A DNA stretch of 64,000 nucleotides, taken from NCBI GenBank assembly GCA_963974535.1, contig CAXBCN010000006.1, positions 21,007 through 85,006 of the forward strand, written 5' to 3'. The stretch comes from an uncultured Cellulophaga sp. (lineage in GTDB: Bacteria > Bacteroidota > Bacteroidia > Flavobacteriales > Flavobacteriaceae). The notes beneath the pieces are model-generated. The model made no database searches. It worked only from the letters and a program-made list of their open reading frames with translations, and had not been told where the DNA came from. A program made the translations under genes and the position numbers. Positions 3,604-49,042 of the stretch are shown piece after piece. How positions within the stretch are numbered: position 1 is the first letter of the stretch; the number at the start of each line of letters is the position of its first letter.

Positions 3604-3978
3604 TTACTTTTTAGGTCTTTTAGCACCATACTTAGATCTACGTTGGGTTCTTCCAGCAACACCTGCTGTATCTAAAGCACCTCTAACGATATGATACCTA
3701 ACACCTGGTAAATCCTTAACTCTTCCGCCCCTTACTAATACTATCGAGTGCTCTTGTAAATTGTGACCCTCACCTGGGATGTATGCGTTTACTTCCTTAC
3801 CATTTGTTAACCTAACCCTTGCAACTTTACGCATTGCAGAATTTGGTTTCTTTGGTGTAGTTGTGTAAACACGAGTACAAACCCCTCTTCTTTGAGGACA
3901 CGAATCTAAAGCAGCCGATTTACTCTTCTTAGTAATCGTGGCCCTTCCTTTTCGTACTAATTGTGAAATTGTTGGCAT
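3604..3978 (-). CDS. rpsL: 30S ribosomal protein S12
   Basis: [30 protein letters not shown]. Confidence 0.99.
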
Positions 3979-15805: not shown

Positions 15806-18800
15806 ATGAAAAAAGCATCGCTTCTTATTGCCATACTTATATGTTCTCAGCTGGTGACTAGTCAAGAAAATTCAGATGCCTACGCTGCCTTATGGAAAAA
15901 AGTGGCACAATTTGACACTGAAAACCTGCCGAAATCAGCACTAAAAGTAGTTGGTGTGATTTCAGAAAAGGCTAGAAAAGAAAAAAATACGCCACAGCTC
16001 GTAAAGTCACTTATTTATTCATCAAAATACGCCTTGACACTTGAAGAGGAGGCACAACTAAGCATCATAAACGATTTTAAATTAGAAATTGAGAAAGCAG
16101 AATTACCGACAAAAAATATATTAGAAAGCTATTTAGCCAATTTATATTGGCAGTACTTTCAACAAAATAGATATCAATTTTATAATCGTACAGAAACTGC
16201 TGAGAAAGTAGATACTACTGATTTTAGAACTTGGGATTTAACCACACTTTTTAATGAAATAAGGATACATTTTGATGCTTCTCTACAACAAAGTGCTGCC
16301 TTACAAAAAATAAAAGTATCTGAATTTGATGTGATATTGCACCAACAAAAAGGGTCCGAAACCTTTCGGCCTACGTTGTACGATGTATTGGCGCACGCAG
16401 CCTTGAGTTTTTATAAAACAAGCGAAAATAACATCACAAGACCCGCAGCTAAATTTGAAATAGATAGCATTGATCTATTATGTGAAGGGTATCAATTTAT
16501 CCAAAAGCAAATTAAAACAACAGACGAAACTTCCTTACAGGCGAAAGCATTATTGATTTATCAAGAGTTATTAAAATTTCATACAAAAAATACTTCTTTA
16601 GATGCCTATACGGCCATAGATCTTGAACGTTTACAATTTATGAAAGAAAATACCACTTTTGAAGACAAAGAACTGCAGTATATATCTGTTTTAAAAAATT
16701 CGGCGGAGCAGGTCAAAACAAATGCCCATTGGGGCCTTTACCAACATGAAATTGCGTCACAATACCAACAATGGGGTATGCAATATCAGCCAATGCATAA
16801 AGAAGAATCCCGTTGGAAACTTAAAGAAGCCTTGGAATTATCCGAAACTATTATTGCAAAATTCCCTGAAAGCCTTGGCGCGGAAAAAAGCAAAAGCTTA
16901 AGAGCTTCTATTTTAAGTAAAGCGCTAAGAATTACCAATGAAACCCATATTCCTATCCATAAAGTTTCAAAGCTGCTCGTTCAACATAAAAACATAGACC
17001 TTGTAACCCTTACGGCATACAAAAGTAGTCTTGAACAACTAGAAAAATTAGATGACCTTTATGATAAGGATGAAAAAAAAGCATTTATAAAATCGCTAAA
17101 ACCCTATAAAAATTGGAGTTCCACTTTAAAAAATGAGGGCGATTATCAAAACCATAGTAGCGAAGTTATAGTCCCTGAATTAGAAAACGGCTATTATATT
17201 TTGGTCGCTACCAGCCATGATGATGCTACAGATTCTTTTGCCTACAGCGGTTTACAAGTCACAAATATGGCGCTTGTTGAATCACAAAACGACAGGGTTC
17301 ACACGTTTCAAGTTATTGATAGAACTAATGGAAAACCTATAGCCAACGCGTCGATACAATTAAACTACAGGCTTAATTACGATAAAAAATTCTTGTCTAA
17401 AACTTTCACTGCCGACGCTAAGGGCCAAATACACATCTCAAAATCTTTAGACAATTGGACCGAGATAAAAGCGAAAGTTAGCTATGTAAAAGAAACTACT
17501 CTTTTCGGCACCTATTATATTAATAGAGATTATTCCGGTAATCCCTCAGAAGAGATCAGCTATGCTTGTTTTTTATTTACCGATCGCAGTATCTACAGGC
17601 CTGGTCAAGCGCTTTATTTTAAGGGCATTGCCGTAACTAGAACTGCAGACACCCAAACTATTTCACCAAATACAACAGTGATTGTATCGCTCTTTGATAC
17701 AAATAGTCAAGAAGTTGCACAACAAACATTAAAAACCAACGCCTTTGGTTCTTTTGCTAGTGAATTTATGCTTCCAAATACCGGCCTTACGGGTAATTAT
17801 AGCTTGCGCGTCAACTCCACTGAAGTGAACATCAGCGGATACAGTAGTTTTTCTGTAGAAGAATACAAAAGGCCAAAATTCGAAGCTAGGTTGCTACCGA
17901 TAACAGAAACCTACAAGGTAAATGATGTAATCACTGTAAAAGGTAAAGCGCTGGCCTTTGCTGGCAGCACTATTAGCGATGCTAAAGTAAGCTATCGCGT
18001 AAAACGGGTAGTGAATTATCCTAGGTGGTATTATTGGTATCGCCCTTATTTTAATTCAGCGCCACAAGAAATTACTTTTGGAGCAACAACAACAGATGGT
18101 TCTGGGGAATTTAAAATAGATTTTAAAGCACTAGCTGACACCAGCACCTCAGCGCGTAATTTACCTACGTTTAGCTATGATGTTACAGCCGATATCACCG
18201 ATGTGAATGGAGAAACCCATAGTGCTTCTACTCGAGTAAATGTAGGATATCATGCCTTAACTGCCAGCATTCAAGTGGCAAGCAGCATCGATAAAAATAA
18301 TCCTGAGCAACAAAAGTTGCACATTGGCAGCTATAACTTAAACGGACAATTTGTGGGTACCAAAGGCACGCTTAAAGTTTATAAATTAAAAGCTCCAGAT
18401 GATGTTCTTAGGCCTAGACCTTGGGCTGCGCCCGATTATGATAATTTTGGCCAAAAAAAGTTTAAGACCTTATTTCCACATGATGCTTATAAAAATGAAC
18501 AAGATAGTCATCAATGGGAAAAGGAAAAATTAGTATGGGAAACAACTTTTGATACCGAAAAATCACAAGAAGTAAATCTACCTCAGCTTAACAAATGGCG
18601 GTCTGGCAAATATAGTATCGAACTTGAAACCAAAGATACATTTGGTCAAATTGTCGAAGAAAAGGTACAAACTAAGTTGTTTAGTGACACTGATGAATAT
18701 CCTGCGGATAATGAATTATTTACCATCACTACCGATAAAACAAGTTATGCCATTGGTGATAAGGTTAAATTAAAATTAAGCACTGCTGCGAAAGACCTTG

Positions 18801-21800
18801 TGGTAACTGTTTCTATTGAAAAAGATAGGAAAATCATCGAGACTAAAATTGTGAAACTATCGCGTAATTCGGAAACACTGACAATGCCTGTACATAAGGA
18901 CGATTTAGGCGGGTTTGCGGTAAACTATAGTTTCTCCGCTTTTAATTATTTTCAATCTAATTCTATAGTGGTTCCTGTACCCTATGCCCCGACAGCCTTA
19001 GAAATTGAAACCCTAACTTTTCGTGATAAGTTACAACCAGGCACCGATGAAACCTGGTCGTTTAAAATAAAAGGTACACAAGGAGATCAGGTTGCGGCTG
19101 AACTTTTAGCGAGTATGTATGACGCTTCTTTAGACGCTTTTAAACCACATAATTATAGTTTTCATCCCTTATACCAGCCCTATTATTATTCAAACCGCCG
19201 GAGTAATGCTAACCACAGTTACGGTATCGATACCTTTAATACGTACTGGAATTTCGGCAATGGCTATGATTACAAACCACAATACTATGATGCTTTTGAT
19301 TGGTTTGGATTGCAGTTTGGGAATTCTTACTATGCCTATGGCCGCACACGCAGTACGGCAAAAAATATGGTTTATGAAATGTCCTCAATGGTTGTAGAAG
19401 ATAACGTTGATATGGAAATAACTGACGTCGATTTCTCTGGTGCTCCAGCTCCTGAAAATAGACAAGAAATTATTCCTTTAGAAAATGACTCCATCAAAAT
19501 CACGTCTAAAACCGATTTCGACGATATCAAAATCCGAAAAAACCTGCAAGAAACCGCTTTTTTCTTTCCGCAATTACAAACTGACACAGCTGGAAATGTC
19601 TCGTTTAATTTCACCACACCAGAGGCCTTGACCAAATGGAAGTTGCAGTTGGTAGCACATACCAAAGACCTGGAAAGTGCTACCCGAACCTTGCAAACGG
19701 TGACCCAGAAAGAGTTGATGGTAATACCAAATGCACCTCGTTTTCTAAGAGAAGGCGACCAGATCGTTATTCGTTCTAAAATTGCTAACCTCACCGACAA
19801 AATTTTAAATGGAGCTGCCAAATTAGTACTGACAGACGCCCTTACCAATAAAGAAATTAACGGCTTAATTTCAGGAAGTGAGCAAAAAGAATTTACCGTG
19901 GATGCTACTGGCAATACGCAAGTTTCTTGGACCCTTAGTATTCCGGAAGGTTTGCAGGCGGTACAGTATAAAATAGTAGCCAGAGCAGGCGATTTTAGTG
20001 ATGGAGAACAAAATGTTTTGCCTGTTTTAACCAACAGAATGTTGGTGACAGCGTCTTTACCTATGTGGGTGCGTAGCAATCAAACCAAAACCTTTAGCTT
20101 AGATAAGTTGAGAAATATGTCGACTGAGCCCAATAACCAGACTTCGCTCAGCCTCCATAAGTTGACCTTAGAAATAACCTCCAATCCGGCATGGTATGCG
20201 GTACAAGCACTACCCTACTTAATGGAATACCCGTACGAATGCAATGAGCAAACCTTTGCCCGGTATTATGCCAATAGTTTGGCTAGCTATGTTGCGAATA
20301 GCAATCCTAGAATCCAAGAAGTCTTTAATCAATGGGCTACTACCGACGCTATGCTAAGCAATCTTGAAAAGAACGAAGAATTAAAATCGATTTTAATTCA
20401 AGAAACACCTTGGTTGCGTGATGCACAATCAGAAACGGAACAGAAAAAACGTATAGCACTGCTTTTTAACATGAATAAAATGAAAGCAGAACAAGCAACG
20501 GCCATAAAAAAATTAGAGCAAAATCAACTCTCCTCCGGGGCTTGGGCTTGGTTTGCTGGCGGTAAAGAAAATCGGTATATCACACAACATATTGTTACTG
20601 GTTTGGGGCATTTAGATAAATTGACTTCTAAGCTACTCGATCCAAGCTCGGTGGCTGAAAAAGCTCAAAGTCAAATGATTGAAAACGCTATTTCGTATTT
20701 AGACGCTGAATTTATTGCTGAATATGAGTATATGAAAAAGCGTACGACCAACCTGAATAACGATCATTTGAGTACCATGCAAGTCCATTATTTATATATG
20801 CGAAGCTTTTTTAAAGACCTTAAACCGTCTAAAAAAGTCGCTGAAATTACGGCTTATTATCAAGGACAGGCTCAGCAATACTGGAAAAATAGAGATTTAT
20901 ATACCCAAGGGATGCTTTCCTTGGTATTGCATCGCATGGATGACACCACAACTGCCAATGCTATTATCAAATCTTTAGATGAAAACAGTATTACCAGCGA
21001 AGCCTTAGGCATGTACTGGAAAGAAAATACCAACTCTTGGTATTGGTATCAAGCACCTATAGAAACGCAAAGTTTATTGATTGAAGCCTTTTCTGAAATT
21101 CAAAATGATCTGGCTACAATTGATAATTTAAAAATATGGTTGTTGAAAAATAAGCAAACTAACCAGTGGAAAACCACAAAAGCTACTACTGAAGCTGTCT
21201 ATGCGCTTCTATTACAAGGTAGCGATTGGTTGTCGGTTACTGATGCCGTTGAAGTTTTAATAGGTGGAGAAAAATTAAATGCCTCCAAACTAGAAAATGT
21301 AAAAATAGAAGCAGGCACTGGCTATTACAAAACCTCTTGGAATAAAGATGAAATAAAGCCTAAAATGGGCGAAATTGAAATGAGTAAAAAAGGAAATGGC
21401 ATTGCTTGGGGCGCTTTACACTGGCAATATTTTGAGGACTTAGATAAAATCACCTCGTCGGAAACACCCTTACAACTAAAAAAGAAGTTATTTCTTAAAA
21501 AAAATACCGCCACAGGAGAACAGCTCAGCGAAATAAGCTCTCAAACAAAACTCAATCTTGGCGATTTAGTTCGAATACGAATTGAATTGCGGGCTGATCG
21601 TGATATGGAGTTTATTCACATGAAAGATATGCGCGCTGCTGGTTTTGAGCCCATCAATGTATTGTCTCGCTACAAATGGCAAGATGGTTTAGGCTACTAT
21701 GAAAGCACAAAAGACGCCAGTACCAATTTCTTTTTTGATGATCTCCCCAAAGGCGTCTATGTTTTTGAATACGATGTACGGGTAAATAATGCAGGAGAAT

Positions 21801-39618: not shown

Positions 39619-42468
39619 ATGAGGACAGACGTGTTTGCATCACGCCACATTGGCATCAGAGAAGAAGATCTTCAACACATGTTAGAAAAAGTGGGCGTTG
39701 AAAATCTAGAACAATTAATTTACGAAACCATTCCTACCGATATTCGTTTAAAAAATCCGCTGAAGCTAGAAGCAGCCATGAGCGAAAACGAATTCTTAGA
39801 ACATATTCAAAAACTTTCAGAAAAAAATAAAGTTTTTTCTACCTACATAGGTTTAGGGTATCACGAAAGTATTACCCCCTCGGTGATCAAGAGAAATATT
39901 TTTGAAAATCCGGGATGGTACACCGCATACACGCCTTACCAAGCTGAAATTGCACAGGGTCGTTTAGAGGCTTTATTGAATTTTCAAACCATGATCTGTG
40001 ACTTAACAGGCATGGAGTTGGCAAATGCGTCACTTTTAGATGAAAGTACAGCTGCTGCCGAAGCCATGACGATGCTTTTCGAAGTGAGAAGTAGGGATCA
40101 AAAGAAAAATAACATAAAGAAGTTCTTTGTTTCTGAGGAGTTATTACCGCAAACCAAATCACTTTTAAAAACAAGAGCAGTTCCTTTAGAAATTGAATTG
40201 GTTATTGGCAATCACGAAACCTTTGATTTTAGCAGTGATTTCTACGGCGCTATTTTACAGTATCCAGGAAAACACGGTCAAATTCACGACTATCAAGGCT
40301 TTGTGACTAAAGCTAAAGACAATGATATTAAAGTAGCGGTTGCTGCTGATATTTTAAGCTTGGTGCTTTTGCAAGCACCTGGTGAATTAGGCGTTGATGT
40401 GGTTGTCGGGACAACGCAACGTTTCGGAATTCCATTAGGATATGGTGGTCCTCATGCGGCATTTTTTGCCACAAAAGAAGAATATAAAAGAAGTATTCCT
40501 GGACGTATTATTGGTCGTACAATTGATACCGATGGTAACCCTGCACTCCGTATGGCCTTACAAACCAGAGAACAACATATTAAACGTGACAAGGCAACAT
40601 CAAATATTTGCACTGCTCAGGTTTTATTAGCTGTTATGGCCAGTATGTATGCCGTATACCACGGACCTAAAGGATTAAAATATATTGCTAGCAAAGTGCA
40701 TGCTTCAGCAGCAACACTGACTGATGCTTTAGAAAAGTTAGGGATATACCAAGCAAACAGCGCATACTTTGATACCATTACCGTTAAAGCAGACGCTAGT
40801 TTGGTAAAACCAATAGCAGAGCAACACGAAATAAACTTTTTATACAGTGAGGATAATAGCATCTCTATTTCGCTGAACGAAGCTACATCGCTACAAGATT
40901 TACAGGATATCATCAGTGTTTTTGCAAAAGCATTAGGAAAAGATGTTGTTCCCATAGACGACTTAACAACGGCCACTGCAATTCCTTCGAATTTAGCACG
41001 AACCACGCCTTTCTTAGAAAACGCAGTTTTTAACTCGTATCATTCGGAGACACAAATGATGCGTTATATCAAAAGGTTAGAGAATAAAGATCTAGCTTTA
41101 AACCACTCAATGATTTCTTTAGGTTCCTGCACCATGAAATTAAATGCAGCTACCGAAATGTTGCCTTTGGGTTCTGCGCAATGGAGCAACATACACCCAT
41201 TTGTTCCTGTGGAACAAGCAGAGGGGTATCAAATTATGCTTGCTGAATTAGAAAAAGATTTAAACGAAATAACTGGTTTTGCAGGAACATCATTGCAACC
41301 TAATTCTGGAGCTCAAGGTGAATATGCAGGCTTAATGGTAATCCGAGCTTACCATGAATCTAGAAATGACGCACATAGAAACATCTGTTTAATTCCTGCT
41401 TCTGCTCATGGTACCAACCCTGCTTCGGCTGTTATGGCTGGAATGCAAGTTGTGGTTACCAAAACAGATGAAAAAGGAAATATTGATGTTGCAGACTTAG
41501 AAGAAAAAGTAGCGAAGCACTCCGATAATTTAGCGGCTTTAATGGTCACCTACCCTTCTACACATGGTGTTTTTGAATCATCAATAAAACACATTACCCA
41601 ATTAATTCACGATAACGGTGGTCAAGTGTATATGGATGGTGCCAACATGAATGCTCAAGTAGGACTAACAAATCCTGCCACTATTGGGGCTGATGTATGT
41701 CACTTAAATTTACACAAAACCTTTGCTATTCCCCATGGTGGTGGTGGCCCAGGTGTTGGCCCTATCTGCGTGGCGAAACAACTGGTTCCATTTTTACCTG
41801 GAAATCCGATTATAAAAACAGGGGGGGACCAAGCAATAACGGCTATTTCTGCTGCTCCATGGGGTAGCTCTCTAGTGTGCTTGATTTCTTATGCCTACAT
41901 AAAAATGTTAGGTGAATTTGGACTGAGACACTCTACCGAAATTGCGATTTTAAACGCCAATTATATCAAACACAGATTGAGTGGTAATTTTGAAGTTTTA
42001 TATACTGGAGAAAAAGGTAGAGCTGCACACGAAATGATTATCGATTGCCGACCCTTTAAACAAAACGGGATTGAAGTTACTGACATTGCAAAACGCTTAA
42101 TGGATTATGGTTTTCACGCACCAACAGTATCTTTCCCTGTGGCTGGAACCGTTATGATCGAGCCTACAGAAAGTGAAGGTTTGTCAGAATTAGATCGTTT
42201 TTGTGATGCCATGATTAGTATTCGCAAAGAAATTAATGAAGCTACAGAAGGTGATGCTGATAATGTGTTAAAGAACGCACCACATACACTAAAAATGGTA
42301 ACCAATGATGCTTGGAATTTTCCATATTCTAGAGAAAAAGCAGCTTTTCCTTTGGCCTTTGTTAGTGAAAATAAATTTTGGCCATCGGTTCGTCGTGTTG
42401 ATGATGCTTATGGGGATCGTAATTTAATTTGTACCTGCGCACCTATCGAAGCGTATATGGAAGCTTAA
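39619..42468 (+). CDS. gcvP: Glycine dehydrogenase (decarboxylating), P protein
   Basis: [40 protein letters not shown]. Confidence 0.99.
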
Positions 42469-42492
42469 GAAGCTAATAAAATCAATATACAC

Positions 42493-42526
42493 AAGCCCCT
42501 TTACCATCATGGAGGGGCTTTTTTTT
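42493..42526 (+). terminator. Rho-independent terminator after gcvP
   Basis: AAGCCCCT...AGGGGCTT stem followed by a T-run. Confidence 0.85.
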
Positions 42527-42636
42527 GCGCTAAGCACACCTTAAACAGCCCTTGAACATCATGTTATTTGCTATGCATGCATAATAGTTGTTTCAATTTT
42601 TAATATCTTGCCATACCTTATCACAATACCAAAGCA

Positions 42637-43695
42637 ATGAAAATCGGAATTACTGGAACAGGCTCATATATACCCGCTGTTTTAACTAAAAATTCAGCGT
42701 TTAATCATCACCAATTTTTAAATGACGATGGCACTCCCTTTGCCTATGAAAATGAGGTAATTATAGAAAAGTTTAAAGCCATTACAGGGATCGAAGAGCG
42801 CAGGTATGCCCCAAATACCTTAAACACCTCAGACATGGCTTTTTATGCTGCCGAAAAGGCGATTGCAGATGCCGGTATCGACAAAGAGACTTTAGATTAT
42901 ATTATTTTTGCTCATAATTTTGGCGATGTTCATCACGGCCAGTCGCAAGGAGACACCTTACCCAGTTTAGCGACCCGAGTAAAACACCATTTAAAAATTA
43001 AAAATCCAAAATGCGTCGCCTATGATATTCTTTTTGGCTGCCCAGGTTGGATAGAAGGGGTCATACAAGCTTACGCCTTTATCAAAAGTGGTCTGGCCAA
43101 AAAATGTTTAGTGATTGGCGCTGAAACCCTTTCTCGAGTCGTAGATCCATACGATCGCGATTCTATGATTTATTCTGACGGTGCTGGGGCTACCATTATT
43201 GAAGCTTCAGAAGCCAATGGTGAAATTTTAGCCCACGCTTCTGCCACCTATGCCTTTGATGAAGCTAATTTTTTATTCTTTGGGAAATCATATGCCCAAA
43301 ATGACAACAGCGGTACGAAATACATAAAAATGCACGGTCGTAAAATCTATGAATTTGCCGTAACAAATGTGCCCAAAGCCATGAAAGAGTGTTTGGATGC
43401 CAGTGGACTTGCCATTACCGATGTCAAAAAAATATTCATTCATCAAGCCAATGAAAAAATGGATGAAGCCATCGTAAAACGGTTTTACAAAGCGTATGGC
43501 ATGGCAATGCCTGAAGGTATTATGCCCATGAATATTAAAGAAAATGGGAATAGTTCCGTAGCCACCATCCCTACCCTTTTTGATATGGTTAAAAACGGAA
43601 AATTAGCCCCACATAGCGTCACTAAAGGAGATGTTGTTATCTTTGCAAGTGTTGGTGCAGGAATGAACATCAACGCTATTATTTACAGGTACTAA
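42637..43695 (+). CDS. fabH: 3-oxoacyl-ACP synthase III (FabH family)
   Basis: GTGSYIP, FGCPG catalytic Cys, DGAGA, IHQAN, GNSSVA, GAGM. Confidence 0.88.
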   Translation: MKIGITGTGSYIPAVLTKNSAFNHHQFLNDDGTPFAYENEVIIEKFKAITGIEERRYAPNTLNTSDMAFYAAEKAIADAGIDKETLDYIIFAHNFGDVHHGQSQGDTLPSLATRVKHHLKIKNPKCVAYDILFGCPGWIEGVIQAYAFIKSGLAKKCLVIGAETLSRVVDPYDRDSMIYSDGAGATIIEASEANGEILAHASATYAFDEANFLFFGKSYAQNDNSGTKYIKMHGRKIYEFAVTNVPKAMKECLDASGLAITDVKKIFIHQANEKMDEAIVKRFYKAYGMAMPEGIMPMNIKENGNSSVATIPTLFDMVKNGKLAPHSVTKGDVVIFASVGAGMNINAIIYRY

Positions 43696-43708
43696 TTTTT
43701 TTATTTAC

Positions 43709-44233
43709 ATGTACGAAAATACGTTTCCGAACACGCGTTTTAAGCACACCTTAGCATTTCTTCAAAAGCATATAGCGACTTCTGAATCTATTTTAGATTT
43801 AGGTGTTGAAAATCCATTTACAAAAATAATGGTCGCCAACCACTATGAGGTAGCGAACACACATGGCGAAGATTTAGATTTTGATTTCTCCAGTGTTATT
43901 GCTTCCGATGCCAAGGTGGTAACGGCTTTCGAAATTTTTGAGCATTTACTCGCTCCTCTTAACGTATTACGTGAAATAAAAGCAGATAAATTAGTCGCTA
44001 GTATTCCCTTGCGCTTATGGTTTTCACCCGCCTATCAAAGTAAAACCGACGCTTGGGATCGGCATTATCACGAGTTTGAAGATTGGCAATTCGACTGGCT
44101 TTTAGAAAAAGCAGGTTGGAAAATTATCGACCGTACTAAATTCACCAACCCCGTCAATAAAATAGGCCTGCGCCCTTTACTTCGAAAAGTTACGCCAAGA
44201 TACTACTTGGTGTATGCGGAGCGCATGCCCTAA
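43709..44233 (+). CDS. Short class I SAM methyltransferase-like protein
   Basis: ILDLG, FEIFEHL, HYHEF motifs. Confidence 0.65.
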   Translation: MYENTFPNTRFKHTLAFLQKHIATSESILDLGVENPFTKIMVANHYEVANTHGEDLDFDFSSVIASDAKVVTAFEIFEHLLAPLNVLREIKADKLVASIPLRLWFSPAYQSKTDAWDRHYHEFEDWQFDWLLEKAGWKIIDRTKFTNPVNKIGLRPLLRKVTPRYYLVYAERMP

Positions 44234-44268
44234 TTTTGGTTCAGCTTCTTTTTTGTTACTTCTAGAAT

Positions 44269-44341
44269 ATATAACATATGTCAGATATATCTTAAATTAG
44301 CAGTATAAAGAACATATGTTTTATATACTATTGTTAGCGAC
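44269..44341 (+). repeat. attC-like element 0 (hairpin ending in core GTTAGCGAC)
   Basis: ATATAACATATGT (44269-44281) / ACATATGTTTTATAT (44312-44326) imperfect inverted repeat, then TTGTTAGCGAC (44331-44341). Confidence 0.55.
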
Positions 44342-44367
44342 AAGCGACCAAAAAACAATGTAACTAC

Positions 44368-45015
44368 ATGAAAATAATTGAACAATTACTATTCTTCATT
44401 TCTTGGACAATAATTATAGGCTTATCAGTTTATTTTCTTCTGGAAAATGTAGGTGTTTATTTTACTGGATATAGAAGTGATAGTTACATTAACAACCCGA
44501 TTTGGGTAAGTTCCCACTTAATAGGTGGAACATTAGCATTACTATTTGGCCCCATACAATTCTCTAAACGGATTAGAAACAAATATTTGACTTTTCACAG
44601 ACTGACAGGGAAAATTTATATCATTGGAGCATTTATAGCAGGTTTATCGGCGATTAGGCTTTCACTAATTAGTTCTTGCTTGCCTTGTAGAGTTTCACTC
44701 TTCATTTTAGCTATTTTGGTCCTTTTTACTACTTTTTCAGCTTGGTGGTGCGTAAAAAATGGAAATATCAAAGCACATCAACAATTTATGGTTCGAAGTT
44801 ATATCTGCATACTTTCATTTGTAGCTGTAAGAATTGGAGGGATTATTCCTTTGGACTTTTTATTTGGACAAATTGAAGACCCAACATTTGGCAGAACTGT
44901 AAATGAGTATTTCTTTTCATTTGTCCCAATAATTTGTGGTGAAATATTTATGATTTGGATTCCAACATTAAAAAATATTAAAAGAAAAAAAAGTCGAATT
45001 AATACCAGTCGCTAA
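44368..45015 (+). CDS. DUF2306-like membrane protein
   Basis: SHLIGGTLALLFGPIQF...FHRLTGKIY, HQQFMVRSY; about 6 TM. Confidence 0.8.
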   Translation: MKIIEQLLFFISWTIIIGLSVYFLLENVGVYFTGYRSDSYINNPIWVSSHLIGGTLALLFGPIQFSKRIRNKYLTFHRLTGKIYIIGAFIAGLSAIRLSLISSCLPCRVSLFILAILVLFTTFSAWWCVKNGNIKAHQQFMVRSYICILSFVAVRIGGIIPLDFLFGQIEDPTFGRTVNEYFFSFVPIICGEIFMIWIPTLKNIKRKKSRINTSR

Positions 45016-45525
45016 CAAAGAACTGAGGTAAAAAACAACTCTTTTCTTCATTGAAGTAAGACACAATATTTAGGCTCATAGTTTCATTAAACTGATTCTT
45101 TGAGCTTTTTTAATTAGATTTTTTTCTAGTTATTTGGGTACCCTAATCTGATCATTTCCGTAGCTTTTTTTACAAAATGAATAGCACTATCTAAGAGTCT
45201 TAATAACTTTTTAATTTCCGTTCCACTGTTTTTGAACGGATAGTACTACCTTCTGAACTTGTAACGCTGATCATCAAATGGCCAATGTATATTCTAAAAA
45301 ATTTACTGCCTTAGGTATAGTTAGATGATTTTTGAAAGGACCACCTTTGCATTTTCAAGGACTTAAAATCGAATTCTTAAAGCTTCACAACTGCCGACAG
45401 CTAGGAAACAATACAAAAAAATAAAGTGGTTTTAAATAGGGTCTAAATCAAATCCTCTACGTGTATAGCAAGCTTAATTCTCTCTTTGCTTCTGTCTTGC
45501 TCGTATCTCAATTTAAAGAAAAGCC

Positions 45526-45648
45526 GTGTATAATTCATTGTTAGTTATAGCCTACTAACCGAAGTCTTAACGGACTATATATCTGTAATTTATTTGCTAA
45601 CTTAGTTGCTTAACCCCGCAACTAACCATATACAAATAGGTTGCCAGC
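45526..45648 (+). repeat. attC-like dispersed repeat, copy A
   Basis: Aligns without gaps to 46630-46746; TGTATA/TATACA inverted ends; ends TACAAATAG-GTTGCCAGC. Confidence 0.6.
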
Positions 45649-45679
45649 AATTAAAGAAAACTGAGTTATATATAGAAAA

Positions 45680-46210
45680 TTGAGATATGTAATAGTAGCA
45701 TTTATCACAATTGGCACCTTTGTTTTAAGTTGTAAACAAGACAAAAACAATTCCGTAGTATCTGAAATTGTTGCTACCGAAACAAAGGTAACAGCACCTA
45801 ATCCAGATGAAGAAAAAATAAAAACAACTATCAACAAATTGTTGTTCAATGCTGGAAATTATAATGTTTTGGCATTAGATTCGATGATCTCTGATAAGGC
45901 AATGCTTGGAATAAGCAGTTTAAAAGATGGAACTTGGTCTAATTCAGAAATAGCCATTAACGATTTCTTTGAAAGTGTAAAAAAGATGGAACGTAGTCCT
46001 TACTGTGAGATACCTAATGACTATGACATCATAATTACGAAAGGTCAGTTAGCTTTAGCACGAGCTGATTGCATTCTATACCGATGGGGAATTTCCCAAA
46101 CAAGGGAAATAAACCATTTTACATTCATCAAAGAAAATGGGAATTGGAAAATTCTCAATATATCTTGGACTAAAGAGGAACTTTCTAAAAAAAAAAGAAC
46201 TATGATTTAG
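45680..46210 (+). CDS. NTF2-like lipoprotein (5' part of a frameshifted gene)
   Basis: VLSC lipobox, NTF2-like end FTFIKENGNWKILNISW; stops 14 nt after an A10 run. Confidence 0.75.
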   Translation: MRYVIVAFITIGTFVLSCKQDKNNSVVSEIVATETKVTAPNPDEEKIKTTINKLLFNAGNYNVLALDSMISDKAMLGISSLKDGTWSNSEIAINDFFESVKKMERSPYCEIPNDYDIIITKGQLALARADCILYRWGISQTREINHFTFIKENGNWKILNISWTKEELSKKKRTMI

Positions 46211-46596
46211 AAATCTTTGCTCGTGGATATGCACAAGCTTGGTGTAGTCAAAGACCAAATTTTGTCTCATCCTTTTTCACTGAAGATGGCGTACTACAGA
46301 TCAATGATGGCTCCTCGGCGAAAGGAACTGAAGCGATAACAAATGTTGCTAATGCATTTATGGAGACTTTTCCAGATATGGTTGTTTCACTTGACAGTTT
46401 GACCACCCAATCAGATAAAACACGATTTTATTGGACACTTACTGGAACAAATAAGGGCACCAATGGAACTGGAAATAAAGTTAAAATTAGCGGATTTGAA
46501 GAATGGACTTTGAACAAGGATGGACTAATCCAAGAATCAAAAGGCTATTTTGATCCTAAAGAATATGAGCGCCAATTGAACTTTGGCATCAACTAA
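46189..46596 (+). pseudogene. SnoaL/ester cyclase-like NTF2 domain in the -1 frame (3' part of the split gene)
   Basis: Frame is open from the A10 run (KNYDLEIFARGYAQAWCSQ...FPDM...WTLTGT) with no ATG until 46360. Confidence 0.7.
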
Positions 46597-46606
46597 TCAT
46601 AACTAT

Positions 46607-46746
46607 TACCAACAAAATTACCCTGCATGTAATTAATTGCTTGTTGCTAGACTACTTAAAAAAATGACTGCAAATTCTATATACCACCTATATTTGTAAA
46701 CTTTTATGGGCTATCACACAACTTTTCCTTTACAAAACCGTTAGCC
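46607..46746 (+). repeat. attC-like dispersed repeat, copy B
   Basis: TACCAAC at 46607, shared blocks with copy A at offset 1100, ends TACAAAACC-GTTAGCC. Confidence 0.6.
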
Positions 46747-46780
46747 AAAGCAAAATAACGATAAGAATTTACCTACAACG

Positions 46781-47824
46781 ATGAAACTCTATTCCAGCCT
46801 TTCTAAAATTAGCTTTCTTAAAAAGTATTCCACTAAATTTTTGGCGATTGCGTTCTTAGGGATTCATATTCCGCTCATAGGATTAATTATATTCCTTACC
46901 TATAATGAAGGCGTTTTATCTCCGACAATCATATTGATTTTTACCTTAATTTTTACTTTGGGAGCCACTGCTGTTACTCTATTTATACTTAATAAACTGC
47001 TAGAACCCATTAAGCTGGCTAGAAATTCACTCCAAGCGTATTTAGAAAGTCAAGAGCTTCCTGCTTTACCTATCTATTTCAAAGACGAGGTCGGGGAGCT
47101 TTTAAAAGACCTACAATTTTCTATTGAAGTATTTGACAACCTTATTGATTCTAAACAACAAACAATCGCGATACTATCCCATGACCTTAGAAATCCTTGT
47201 GCGGGAATACTTATGTTAATCGATTTATTAAAGGAAGAAGAAAGCGCTAGCGAAAGAGAAATTATGATGACGAATATTAAATCACTGGCCAAACAGCAAC
47301 TTGCTATCATGGAAAGCACCTTATCTAATCTAAAAAACGAATCTAAAACTCAAGGAAAATTAGAAAAGGTAGCATTAGATTTAAAGAAAATTATTACGGA
47401 AGTCATTAGTTCTCAAAAGGTGGCCTTAGATCAGAAGAAAATCAATTTAGAATTTAATTGTGATTCGGCATTAACCCTACGCGGAAATGAAACTGCATTC
47501 AGGCAAGTGTTCCTTAATTTAATCAACAATGCCATTAAATTTTCCCAAACCGATGGAAAAATTTGGATCAAGGCAGAAAAAACCAAATCGGAAATAAACA
47601 TCGATATTATTGACCAAGGTTTAGGGTTTAAAAAAGAAGTATCAGAAGCCCTTTTTAAACCGTTTACAGAGCATTCTCGTTTAGGCACCAAAGGTGAGTC
47701 TAGCCAAGGAATGGGCTTGTTTATCACAAGAAGGTTCATTAATAAACATTCCGGCACATTAATGGCGAGAAGTGAGGGCCTGAACAAAGGATCAACGTTT
47801 TCCATTCACTTACCACTTACGTAA
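46781..47824 (+). CDS. Orphan membrane sensor histidine kinase (HAMP-HisKA-HATPase)
   Basis: SHDLRNP, NLINNAIKFS, DQGLG, GMGLFI. Confidence 0.92.
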   Translation: MKLYSSLSKISFLKKYSTKFLAIAFLGIHIPLIGLIIFLTYNEGVLSPTIILIFTLIFTLGATAVTLFILNKLLEPIKLARNSLQAYLESQELPALPIYFKDEVGELLKDLQFSIEVFDNLIDSKQQTIAILSHDLRNPCAGILMLIDLLKEEESASEREIMMTNIKSLAKQQLAIMESTLSNLKNESKTQGKLEKVALDLKKIITEVISSQKVALDQKKINLEFNCDSALTLRGNETAFRQVFLNLINNAIKFSQTDGKIWIKAEKTKSEINIDIIDQGLGFKKEVSEALFKPFTEHSRLGTKGESSQGMGLFITRRFINKHSGTLMARSEGLNKGSTFSIHLPLT

Positions 47825-48305
47825 GGCTACCTTGAAGTATCCCTTCATGGTCGCCAACTAAAAAATGCTATAAAAGCAGTTCAATGCTTTATGAATTCAA
47901 TAGGCTAATATTCTAGGCTTATGGCTATATTATCCTGATGCCTTAAGCTTTTTATTAAATTTTTACACAGGAATCTTTAATCTTGTATTATTAAGTTAAA
48001 GGAAGTGTTTAAAGCGCTTCATGGAAAACCTCCTAAATATTCCTTAGCCTGTTTCTTTTTGCTATCTTAGTACAGCCTAACGGTAATAAAGACGGTAACC
48101 TAGGAGATGAATCAACAATTATAGGACTTCTCTTATTAAAGAATTGGATAATTCAGCAACAAAAGTGACATCTTTCGGAATGGCATATATTAAGACTGAA
48201 AAATACTGGCCTTTACGACAGTTTGTTGTAACCGCTAATGAACAAACCTATCGTCATCTTATGGCATCCCTAGTAACAGGTAAACCTTGAGTAAAATATT
48301 ACATT

Positions 48306-48848
48306 ATGGAAAAAGCACTACAAACAATGATTGACAATATGCCTGAAAAAACAGGCAAGTCTTTGAACGAATGGAAAAAAAAATTAAAGACCAAGTCTTT
48401 TGTCAAGCATTCAGAAGCGGTAAACTTTCTTAAAAAAGAATATCAGGTAACGCACGGTTTTGCAAATACCATAGTTACATTGTCTAAAGAGGAGCATACA
48501 ACACCCACCGACCTAGTTGAAAATCAATATGCCGGTAAGGAGAATTTAGTACCGATTTACGAGAGTCTAATAAAGGTGGTTAAATCCTTCGGTGCAGACA
48601 TTACCATTACTCCAAAAAAAACAAGTGTAAGTATCATCAGAAAACGACAATTTGCCTTAATACAACCCGCCACCAAAACCCGTATTGATTTAGGCCTAAA
48701 ATTAAATAACAAACCAACAACCGACCGACTTGAAAATTCAGGCCCATTTGGCACCATGTGTACGCACAGGGTAAAATTGTCTGAGCCTAGTGAGGTAGAT
48801 ACCGAATTAAAAAAATGGCTAAAAGAAGCTTACGAGCAAGCGGAATAA
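48306..48848 (+). CDS. DUF4287/DUF5655-like protein
   Basis: NMPEKTGKSLNEW, THGFAN, PKKTSVS, CTHRVKL. Confidence 0.75.
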   Translation: MEKALQTMIDNMPEKTGKSLNEWKKKLKTKSFVKHSEAVNFLKKEYQVTHGFANTIVTLSKEEHTTPTDLVENQYAGKENLVPIYESLIKVVKSFGADITITPKKTSVSIIRKRQFALIQPATKTRIDLGLKLNNKPTTDRLENSGPFGTMCTHRVKLSEPSEVDTELKKWLKEAYEQAE

Positions 48849-49042
48849 ACACCCAGCCAAAAATTAGAAAAACCATTATTAATTTTAACACGCGCCAAAC
48901 CTTGTTATTCCTTTAAAATTTGCCTCCAATATCAATCAATTAAACCATTACACATCACCGAAACGAAGAGCCGAATTGTACATCACTTATGCTTCTGCAC
49001 TAAACCGTACATTTTGCAAAAACCTTGACCCAATTAAAAATT

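Follow-up and report, generated by a model that had tools for sequence, protein, structure and literature searches.

The DUF2306 gene at positions 44368–45015 of the window, which is the whole 64,000-nt stretch of DNA analysed, most probably belongs, as a cassette, to an integron-like capture system found across Bacteroidota and common in the genus. We put the probability of this reading at about 0.85. The window lies on contig C6 of a 3.8-Mb assembly, and the genome has a GC content of ~36%. As we reconstruct it, a platform of this system would consist of a gene for a Xer-type tyrosine recombinase, an attI-like site immediately behind it that ends in GTT, and a row of co-oriented cassettes, in which each gene would be followed by an imperfect hairpin of ~115–220 nt that starts with ...AAC and ends with GTT....

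The first-pass annotation had reported that the gene is bracketed by a perfect 11-bp inverted repeat and that its stop codon lies in the inverse core, and both statements held at every coordinate. The two arms, TTGTTAGCGAC (44331–44341) and GTCGCTAACAA (45008–45018), are exact reverse complements, and the TAA stop (45013–45015) of the 215-aa ORF is found inside GCTAAC (45011–45016). The ORF matches DUF2306 (PF10067) with an E-value of 2e-24 and 86.9 bits, the gathering cut-off being 31.6. As the window contains 47 inverted pairs of at least 11 nt with arms no more than 1 kb apart, a bare 11-mer repeat means little. Repeats of at least 11 bp that bracket an ORF, defined as one arm at most 60 nt before the start and the other on the stop, were seen for 12 of the 3195 ORFs of the genome, and ~0.2 are expected per window. 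At least one of the 12 (C17:621-64) is itself a cassette adjoining a recombinase gene. Judged by these counts, the 11-bp repeat alone is mildly unusual, not compelling, and gains significance only via the homologs and the flanking repeat families.

In a DNA search of positions 41500–49000 against 20 same-genus species, a block comprising gcvP, a FabH-like gene and a 174-aa ORF is conserved in all 20 genomes up to ~44226. The array extends from 44263 to ~48230 behind this housekeeping block, with four co-oriented genes within 44368–48848 and B/IS-type repeats between them. The order in the window is the 174-aa ORF, an attI-like element without a recombinase, the DUF2306 cassette (its hairpin split by an IS), a SnoaL cassette with a frameshift, a histidine kinase gene with a decayed IS end behind it (GTT at 48225), and a DUF4287/DUF5655 gene. 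The features of the first part are:

43709–44233, plus strand: 174-aa ORF, last gene of the conserved block, after which the variable array starts.
44263–44343, plus strand: orphan attI-like element, named C, with two palindromes and then TATACTATT, GTT being at 44333–44335.
44334–45016, plus strand: DUF2306 gene module, made up of the R' arm TTAGCGAC, a 34-nt leader, the ORF and the R'' arm GTCGCTAAC (45008–45016) with the stop codon.
45018–45523, minus strand: 506 bp left of an IS110-family element that has lost its transposase gene; its insertion point in the hairpin site directly follows AAC(A).
45524–45640, plus strand: remainder of the cassette's attC-like hairpin, of a family named B, ending ...ATACAAATAG|G, with GTT at 45640–45642 and 89 bits to the B profile in nhmmer.
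45641–46740, plus strand: next cassette, with a frameshifted NTF2/SnoaL gene (SnoaL, PF07366), a decayed B hairpin at 46613–46748 and GTT at 46740.

An Rfam scan of 44000–47000 gave no match. Short sequences on either side of DUF2306 have hundreds of matches in the genus genomes, often clustered; at the syntenic site of the 20 genomes, matches to the attI-like, B and IS-end elements were found only in genomes G017 and G001. G017 is the closest relative (91% identity) and the only genus genome that matches on to 44268; its match resumes at 46675, and the gap between the shared flanks is 634 bp vs 2406 bp in the window. It shares the last two genes of the order given above, carries a different first cassette and has a mere trace of the attI-like element. 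Such turnover at the attI-proximal end fits integron-like insertion. The decayed hairpin at 46613–46748 (nhmmer 26.9 bits, E 1e-6) has an orthologous hairpin in G017. An A10 run at 46187–46196 splits the NTF2/SnoaL gene into 45680–46210 and a second frame that reaches 46596 (SnoaL, 2e-15).

A homolog scan with one genome per species yielded 13 loci. Among these, records from Cyclobacteriaceae, Cryomorphaceae, Psychroserpens, Maribacter arcticus, Paucihalobacter, Flavobacterium and Roseivirga encode proteins with 82–95% identity. At the DNA level the module is 87–97% identical in records from Cryomorphaceae, M. arcticus, Psychroserpens, Cyclobacteriaceae and Flavobacterium; over 44334–45016 the values are 96.8% for L074 (the Cryomorphaceae locus), 94.1% for L072 (M. 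arcticus), 92.1% for L070 and 86.7% for L076. The search of the 20 same-genus species gave no close DUF2306 homolog, and neither flank of the window gene matches any of the homolog loci. The high identity starts exactly at G|TTAGCGAC, the preceding bases differing in every homolog, and most homologs keep the ends GTTAGCGAC...GTCGCTAAC. The ends of L070 read GTTAGTGGC...GCCACTAAC, that is, both have changed together by two compensatory changes. The genes next to the homologs are co-oriented and unrelated (DUF3703, DPP-IV, DUF6090, DUF998, DUF3667, 2TM). Complementary end pairs and different neighbours were what the first-pass annotation had asked for as a sign of mobility, and the closest homologs, in other families and orders, have both. 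Its proposal that the locus is the footprint of one inserted cassette with a crossover at G|TT is thus supported by homolog ends and neighbours, and from these alignments we conclude that the DUF2306 cassette is horizontally transferred between families and orders.

A separate observation concerns the region ~20–40 nt before the DUF2306 start in L071 (Psychroserpens) and L072. Here the preceding cassette ends with ..GATTTAAC, only 13 nt from GTTAGCGAC, so sites reduced nearly to the minimum, with no hairpin interior, can exist.

Upstream, the cassette adjoins the C element. Its palindromes are located at ~44267–44290 (degenerate) and 44303–44328, it ends with TATACTATTGTT, and the cassette junction G|TT falls between 44333 and 44334. 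A 95% identical copy is present at positions 3796–3868 of contig C70 of genome G008, where it starts 15 nt after the stop codon of a gene for a 382-aa tyrosine recombinase. Two ORFs follow this copy, and the contig end, ..ACCGCTAACA, is complementary to ..GTTAGCGGT at the element end. Most other C copies directly follow a recombinase gene or its 3' remnant, in some cases just the last codons, and all of them end with TATAC(A/T)ATTGTT followed by variable bases. Because the copies follow recombinase genes, the C element behaves as the attI of one recombinase subfamily. Other attI-like sequences, also ending in GTT, are found in genome G002 and on contig C17 of the window's own genome.

Two copies of TATAnnGAACATATGTTCnnTATA make up the palindromes of the C element (window 44267–44290 and 44303–44328; also L032 7433–7512 and L090 2587–2666). 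The GAAC-N4-GTTC core of this sequence resembles a Firmicutes-type LexA box. Reported LexA motifs of Bacteroidota differ from GAAC-N4-GTTC (PMC8565304). The copies may be binding sites for the recombinase or for a regulator. The 29 nt at 44234–44262 (..GTTACTTCTAGAAT), which are common to G017, loosely resemble the last recombinase codons before other C copies (..CTTGATTCTTAGAA) and may be the trace of a lost recombinase gene.

The downstream site belongs to the B hairpins. The B unit is ~135 nt long (45524–45646 in the window), starts with ..GCCAAC ACCGTGTATAA and ends with ..ATATACAAACACGTTGGC, and B units sit between co-oriented, unrelated genes in arrays. We drew the structure by hand as a long hairpin with an AAC/GTT stem, an asymmetric loop, a 14-pair L stem and an inner hairpin. 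In this structure 83.7% of the cells pair, compared with 33–44% when the partners are slid, and GC<->AU swaps are seen at columns 15–128, 23–120 and 54–66. An alternative local hairpin at columns 96–122 is 72% paired and less well supported. RNAalifold returned no consensus structure for 22 hairpins, and the fold energies of single hairpins are weak (z −0.8 to −1.9). The window site has a z of about −1 in its array form; with the IS cut out and in circular form it has a closed 9-bp R stem, with a z of −2.8 for the top strand and −3.2 for the bottom strand. The pairing of the B family and the fold of the reconstructed site thus have the layout of an attC, an imperfect hairpin with R''(..AAC)/R'(GTT..) and L boxes. 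The first-pass annotation suspected that the downstream attC might be truncated; the site is split by a 506-bp insert rather than truncated, and its rest lies at 45524–45640. Folding the bottom strand of about 45008–45150, as had been suggested, gave no attC-like structure (z −0.44) because this stretch is an IS end.

The insert can be aligned piece by piece with elements of the IS110 type. Positions 45018–45140 represent the IS end downstream of the transposase gene (tnp) and 45149–45523 the long non-coding region upstream of it. In L031, a 1.3-kb IS has ends to which the segments 45001–45133 and 45460–45659 align, and 45149–45625 aligns to positions 1434–1924 of L102, upstream of tnp. Full copies of 1.2–1.3 kb encode a DEDD transposase (PF01548 and PF02371) on the opposite strand, and such tnp-bearing relatives are present in L031, L032, L102 and the window's own genome on contig C27. 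No tnp was detected by tblastn in the remnant at 45018–45523. In every case the insertion separates AAC(A) from CCGT in a B hairpin, a fixed site as is characteristic of IS110/IS1111 elements. Excision of 45018–45523 restores a full B hairpin that aligns over its full length with the hairpins after DUF2306 in L070, L072 and L074, and the IS, which the DUF2306 homologs lack, is a later insertion. A repeat at 45008–45140, named A, was considered as part of a long attC and rejected, as its opposite strand encodes an IS110 transposase in relatives. The copy on contig C27 (32649–33452) is an IS110-type transposase ORF with 71% amino acid identity over 268 of the 272 query residues.

Targeting of integron attC sites by IS1111-attC and IS110-family elements is described in a passage of PMC11187229, which cites Tetu and Holmes (2008) and Post and Hall (2009). 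Like the IS1111-attC elements as outlined in that passage, the elements seen here encode a DEDD transposase and sit in fixed orientation at a fixed position at one end of a cassette site. Unlike the elements in that outline, they target a non-IntI hairpin site and have a longer non-coding region upstream of tnp, which is an IS110-type layout, and the window copy has no tnp.

One array of genome G012 (L028, G012:C1:975000-994999) contains six consecutive cassettes separated by near-identical units:

L028 1237–1860, 4060–4766, 6714–7345, 8788–9420, 13622–14260 and 15957–16585: ~620-bp units, each with the same 118-aa IS110 transposase fragment.

A seventh, internally deleted copy of the unit is found near 19005. 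Apparently a dead IS was incorporated into the recombination site and then spread through this array. A cassette of the same array (17765–18994) encodes a protein with NADase_transloc and HINT domains, a toxin-like architecture, and lies close to cassettes for NADAR and YARHG.

In an integron, the sequence that follows G|TT at the end of an attC is already part of the next cassette, whose own inverse core it pairs with. We searched up to 5 kb on either side of 29 B hairpins for the reverse complement of the GTT+7 arm. It was present downstream of 23 of the 29 hairpins, perfectly in 11 cases, and upstream of 9, with one perfect match (a consensus arm). Examples are GTTATCTCTT followed by AAGAGATAAC 811 nt further on, and GTTACCATAC followed by GTATGGTAAC after 502 nt. 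The rule also holds for the first cassette behind the recombinase gene in G002, on contig C70 of G008 and on contig C17 of the own genome (13/14 bases complementary), and behind the recombinase homologs of L099 and L101, from other parts of the phylum, there are uninterrupted chains of seven pairs, with hairpins of ~115–122 or ~215 nt. The arm sequence varies between cassettes while GTT/AAC is constant. A genome-wide count of GTT..AAC 10-mer pairs showed no orientation excess (253 vs 259), and is uninformative because chance pairs dominate. As in integrons, the DUF2306 cassette begins at its 5' end (TTRRRY..) with bases that pair with its own inverse core, G|TT being the junction, and on the strength of the array comparison the 11-bp repeat is this pairing rule applied to one cassette. 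The later window cassettes no longer follow the rule, which is consistent with decay. Co-directional genes with conserved intergenic repeats make up the arrays in L028, L029, L030, L099 and L101. The own genome has further recombinase-headed platforms with matching GTT/AAC arms at the first cassette, namely C17:1–1810 (ATTGTTGTAGGTA), C5:271–2711 (GTTAGTGGTA) and C41:1303–5128 (GTTGCCCACA).

The protein encoded at the head of the arrays passes the NCBIfam model ‘XerA / integron integrase’ (NF040815) with 226 bits vs a cut-off of 220, and fails the integron-integrase model with 200 bits vs 265. Its alignment to the Vibrio IntI (VchIntIA, 2a3v) skips IntI residues 200–247, that is, the IntI-specific insert is missing, and its gene is co-oriented with the cassettes. 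By these model scores the array-head recombinase is Xer-like. IntI above the TIGR02249 cut-off was found in none of the 21 genus genomes and not in the genome of the window. Homologs of the recombinase (36–63% identity, E ≤ 1e-60) are present in 70 of 301 sampled Bacteroidota genomes. The own genome has several copies on other contigs, the nearest being that on contig C17 (686–1810), which is 58.6% identical to the 382-aa recombinase of G008; no recombinase gene adjoins the window array. Since IntI is absent from the genome and the IntI-specific insert from the recombinase, we call the system integron-like and not a classical integron.

The same anatomy could be claimed for a classical integron cassette in a CALIN, an attC cluster that has lost IntI, mobilised by a true integron integrase: GTT/AAC cores, a stop in the inverse core, hairpin sites and the cassette rule all match. 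We nevertheless hold this to be very improbable, as neither the genome nor the 21 genus genomes have an IntI over the cut-off, the array-head recombinase falls short of the integrase model (200 vs 265 bits), skips IntI residues 200–247 and is co-oriented with its cassettes, and hairpin interiors are not inherited together with the genes, contrary to what the classical model predicts. The arms could instead be terminal inverted repeats, with DUF2306 as the cargo of a small transposon or MITE-like unit mobilised by a transposase, given that what is conserved between hosts is just the gene module bounded by the two arms and that there is an IS110-type element at the right arm. That IS is a later insertion which the homologs lack. 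The arm sequence also differs from cassette to cassette around a constant GTT/AAC, the modules stand in co-oriented rows headed by a tyrosine recombinase, and the window sequence shows no target duplication at the module ends, all of which makes a transposon highly unlikely.

Least credible is a chance match in ordinary chromosomal DNA, for which the 47 inverted pairs of ≥11 nt within 1 kb and the lack of a genome-wide orientation excess of 10-mer pairs might be quoted. It is refuted by at least six other taxa in which the flanks are unrelated and the gene still lies between the same arms, one pair with compensatory changes, and both arms lie exactly at the edges of repeat families.

If the gene is a cassette of the integron-like system, recombination at G|TT would give it a start, TTAGCGAC, that is complementary to the arm GTCGCTAAC before its own AAC. 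The Xer-like recombinase would presumably excise the cassette as a circle and insert it at the attI-like site. The substrate may be a folded single strand with exchange of one strand, as in integrons. Classical double-strand exchange by tyrosine recombinases requires an identical overlap of 6–8 bp; since different hairpins share merely AAC/GTT(R) at the junction, the folded single-strand route appears more likely. The cassette would have arrived in this genome by horizontal transfer, and an IS110-type element targeting such hairpins would have inserted later and then lost its transposase gene. As 506 bp separate the two parts of its hairpin and there is no recombinase gene close by, the DUF2306 copy is probably immobile now.

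The inheritance of the hairpins differs from that of the genes. After the AAC, the hairpin interior is 50–70% identical between hosts vs 87–97% for the gene module including the 34-nt leader. Hairpins instead resemble others of their own host lineage: the one in the window shares 80–83% identity with same-genus copies, and the one of M. arcticus shares 80% with the hairpin that follows it in the array. Thus the site does not travel with the upstream gene as an attC does in integrons. Either the interiors are homogenised within each host, or both ends of the hairpin are crossover points. Tentatively, and we consider this rather doubtful, there could be a phylum-wide, IntI-free analogue of integrons in which the gene module from G|TT to AAC moves and the hairpin interior stays host-specific, with crossovers at both ends or hairpins rebuilt in each host. 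If true, the system could help to test where cassettes come from and why attC sets are host-specific. The contrast between gene modules that move and hairpins that are specific to the host is relevant to how cassettes are made, an unsettled question for integrons.

The closest described system is rAID-1 of gut Bacteroidales (recombinase-associated acquired interbacterial defence; Ross et al. 2019, bioRxiv 10.1101/471110; follow-up PMC12247911). Its clusters carry at their 5' end a XerD-like recombinase gene with a conserved motif immediately behind the stop codon, and they further comprise co-directional short genes and intergenic repeats ‘reminiscent of integrons’ (10.1101/471110). The arrays described here likewise have a Bacteroidota host and, in the relatives, a Xer-like recombinase at their head. 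Membership of rAID-1 is defined by a 5' recombinase >44% identical to B. fragilis BF9343_RS08045; the recombinase of the relatives is Xer-like, and our comparison is with rAID-1 as described. The second part of the definition, at least two co-directional downstream genes with conserved intergenic repeats, describes the window array. Unlike rAID-1, the hosts are Flavobacteriia-type and Cytophagia-type genomes, the cargo (DUF2306, SnoaL, histidine kinase, amidohydrolases) does not obviously consist of immunity genes, and the window array is without a recombinase. The hairpin structure, the G|TT junction and the arm-pairing rule appear in neither 10.1101/471110 nor PMC12247911, and rAID biogenesis is still called an open question in the 2025 preprint (PMC12247911).

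With integrons, including sedentary chromosomal ones and CALINs, the system shares an attI next to the recombinase gene, attC-like AAC/GTT hairpins, the G|TT crossover, host-specific hairpin sets, a cassette start that pairs with its own inverse core and a stop codon inside that core. It differs in that the recombinase has no IntI-specific domain and is co-oriented with the cassettes, and in that the module moves without the hairpin interior. For Bacteroidetes, IntegronFinder reports only In0 elements and one complete integron, in Salinibacter (PMC9024848), and our literature search found no description of such a system in Flavobacteriia or Cytophagia. The locus would represent a working-looking equivalent of an integron, built on a Xer-type recombinase, in a phylum with almost no complete integrons reported, one cassette of which has moved between families and orders at 92–97% DNA identity. 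The precise junctions (G|TT, AAC), the covarying hairpin family, the attI-like site and an attC-targeting IS of its own parallel integron biology, and the idea behind rAID-1 would be extended beyond gut Bacteroidales and beyond immunity genes. The arrays of the relatives carry NADAR, YARHG and NADase_transloc-HINT genes beside amidohydrolases, and some of this cargo may serve interbacterial conflict, as in rAID-1.
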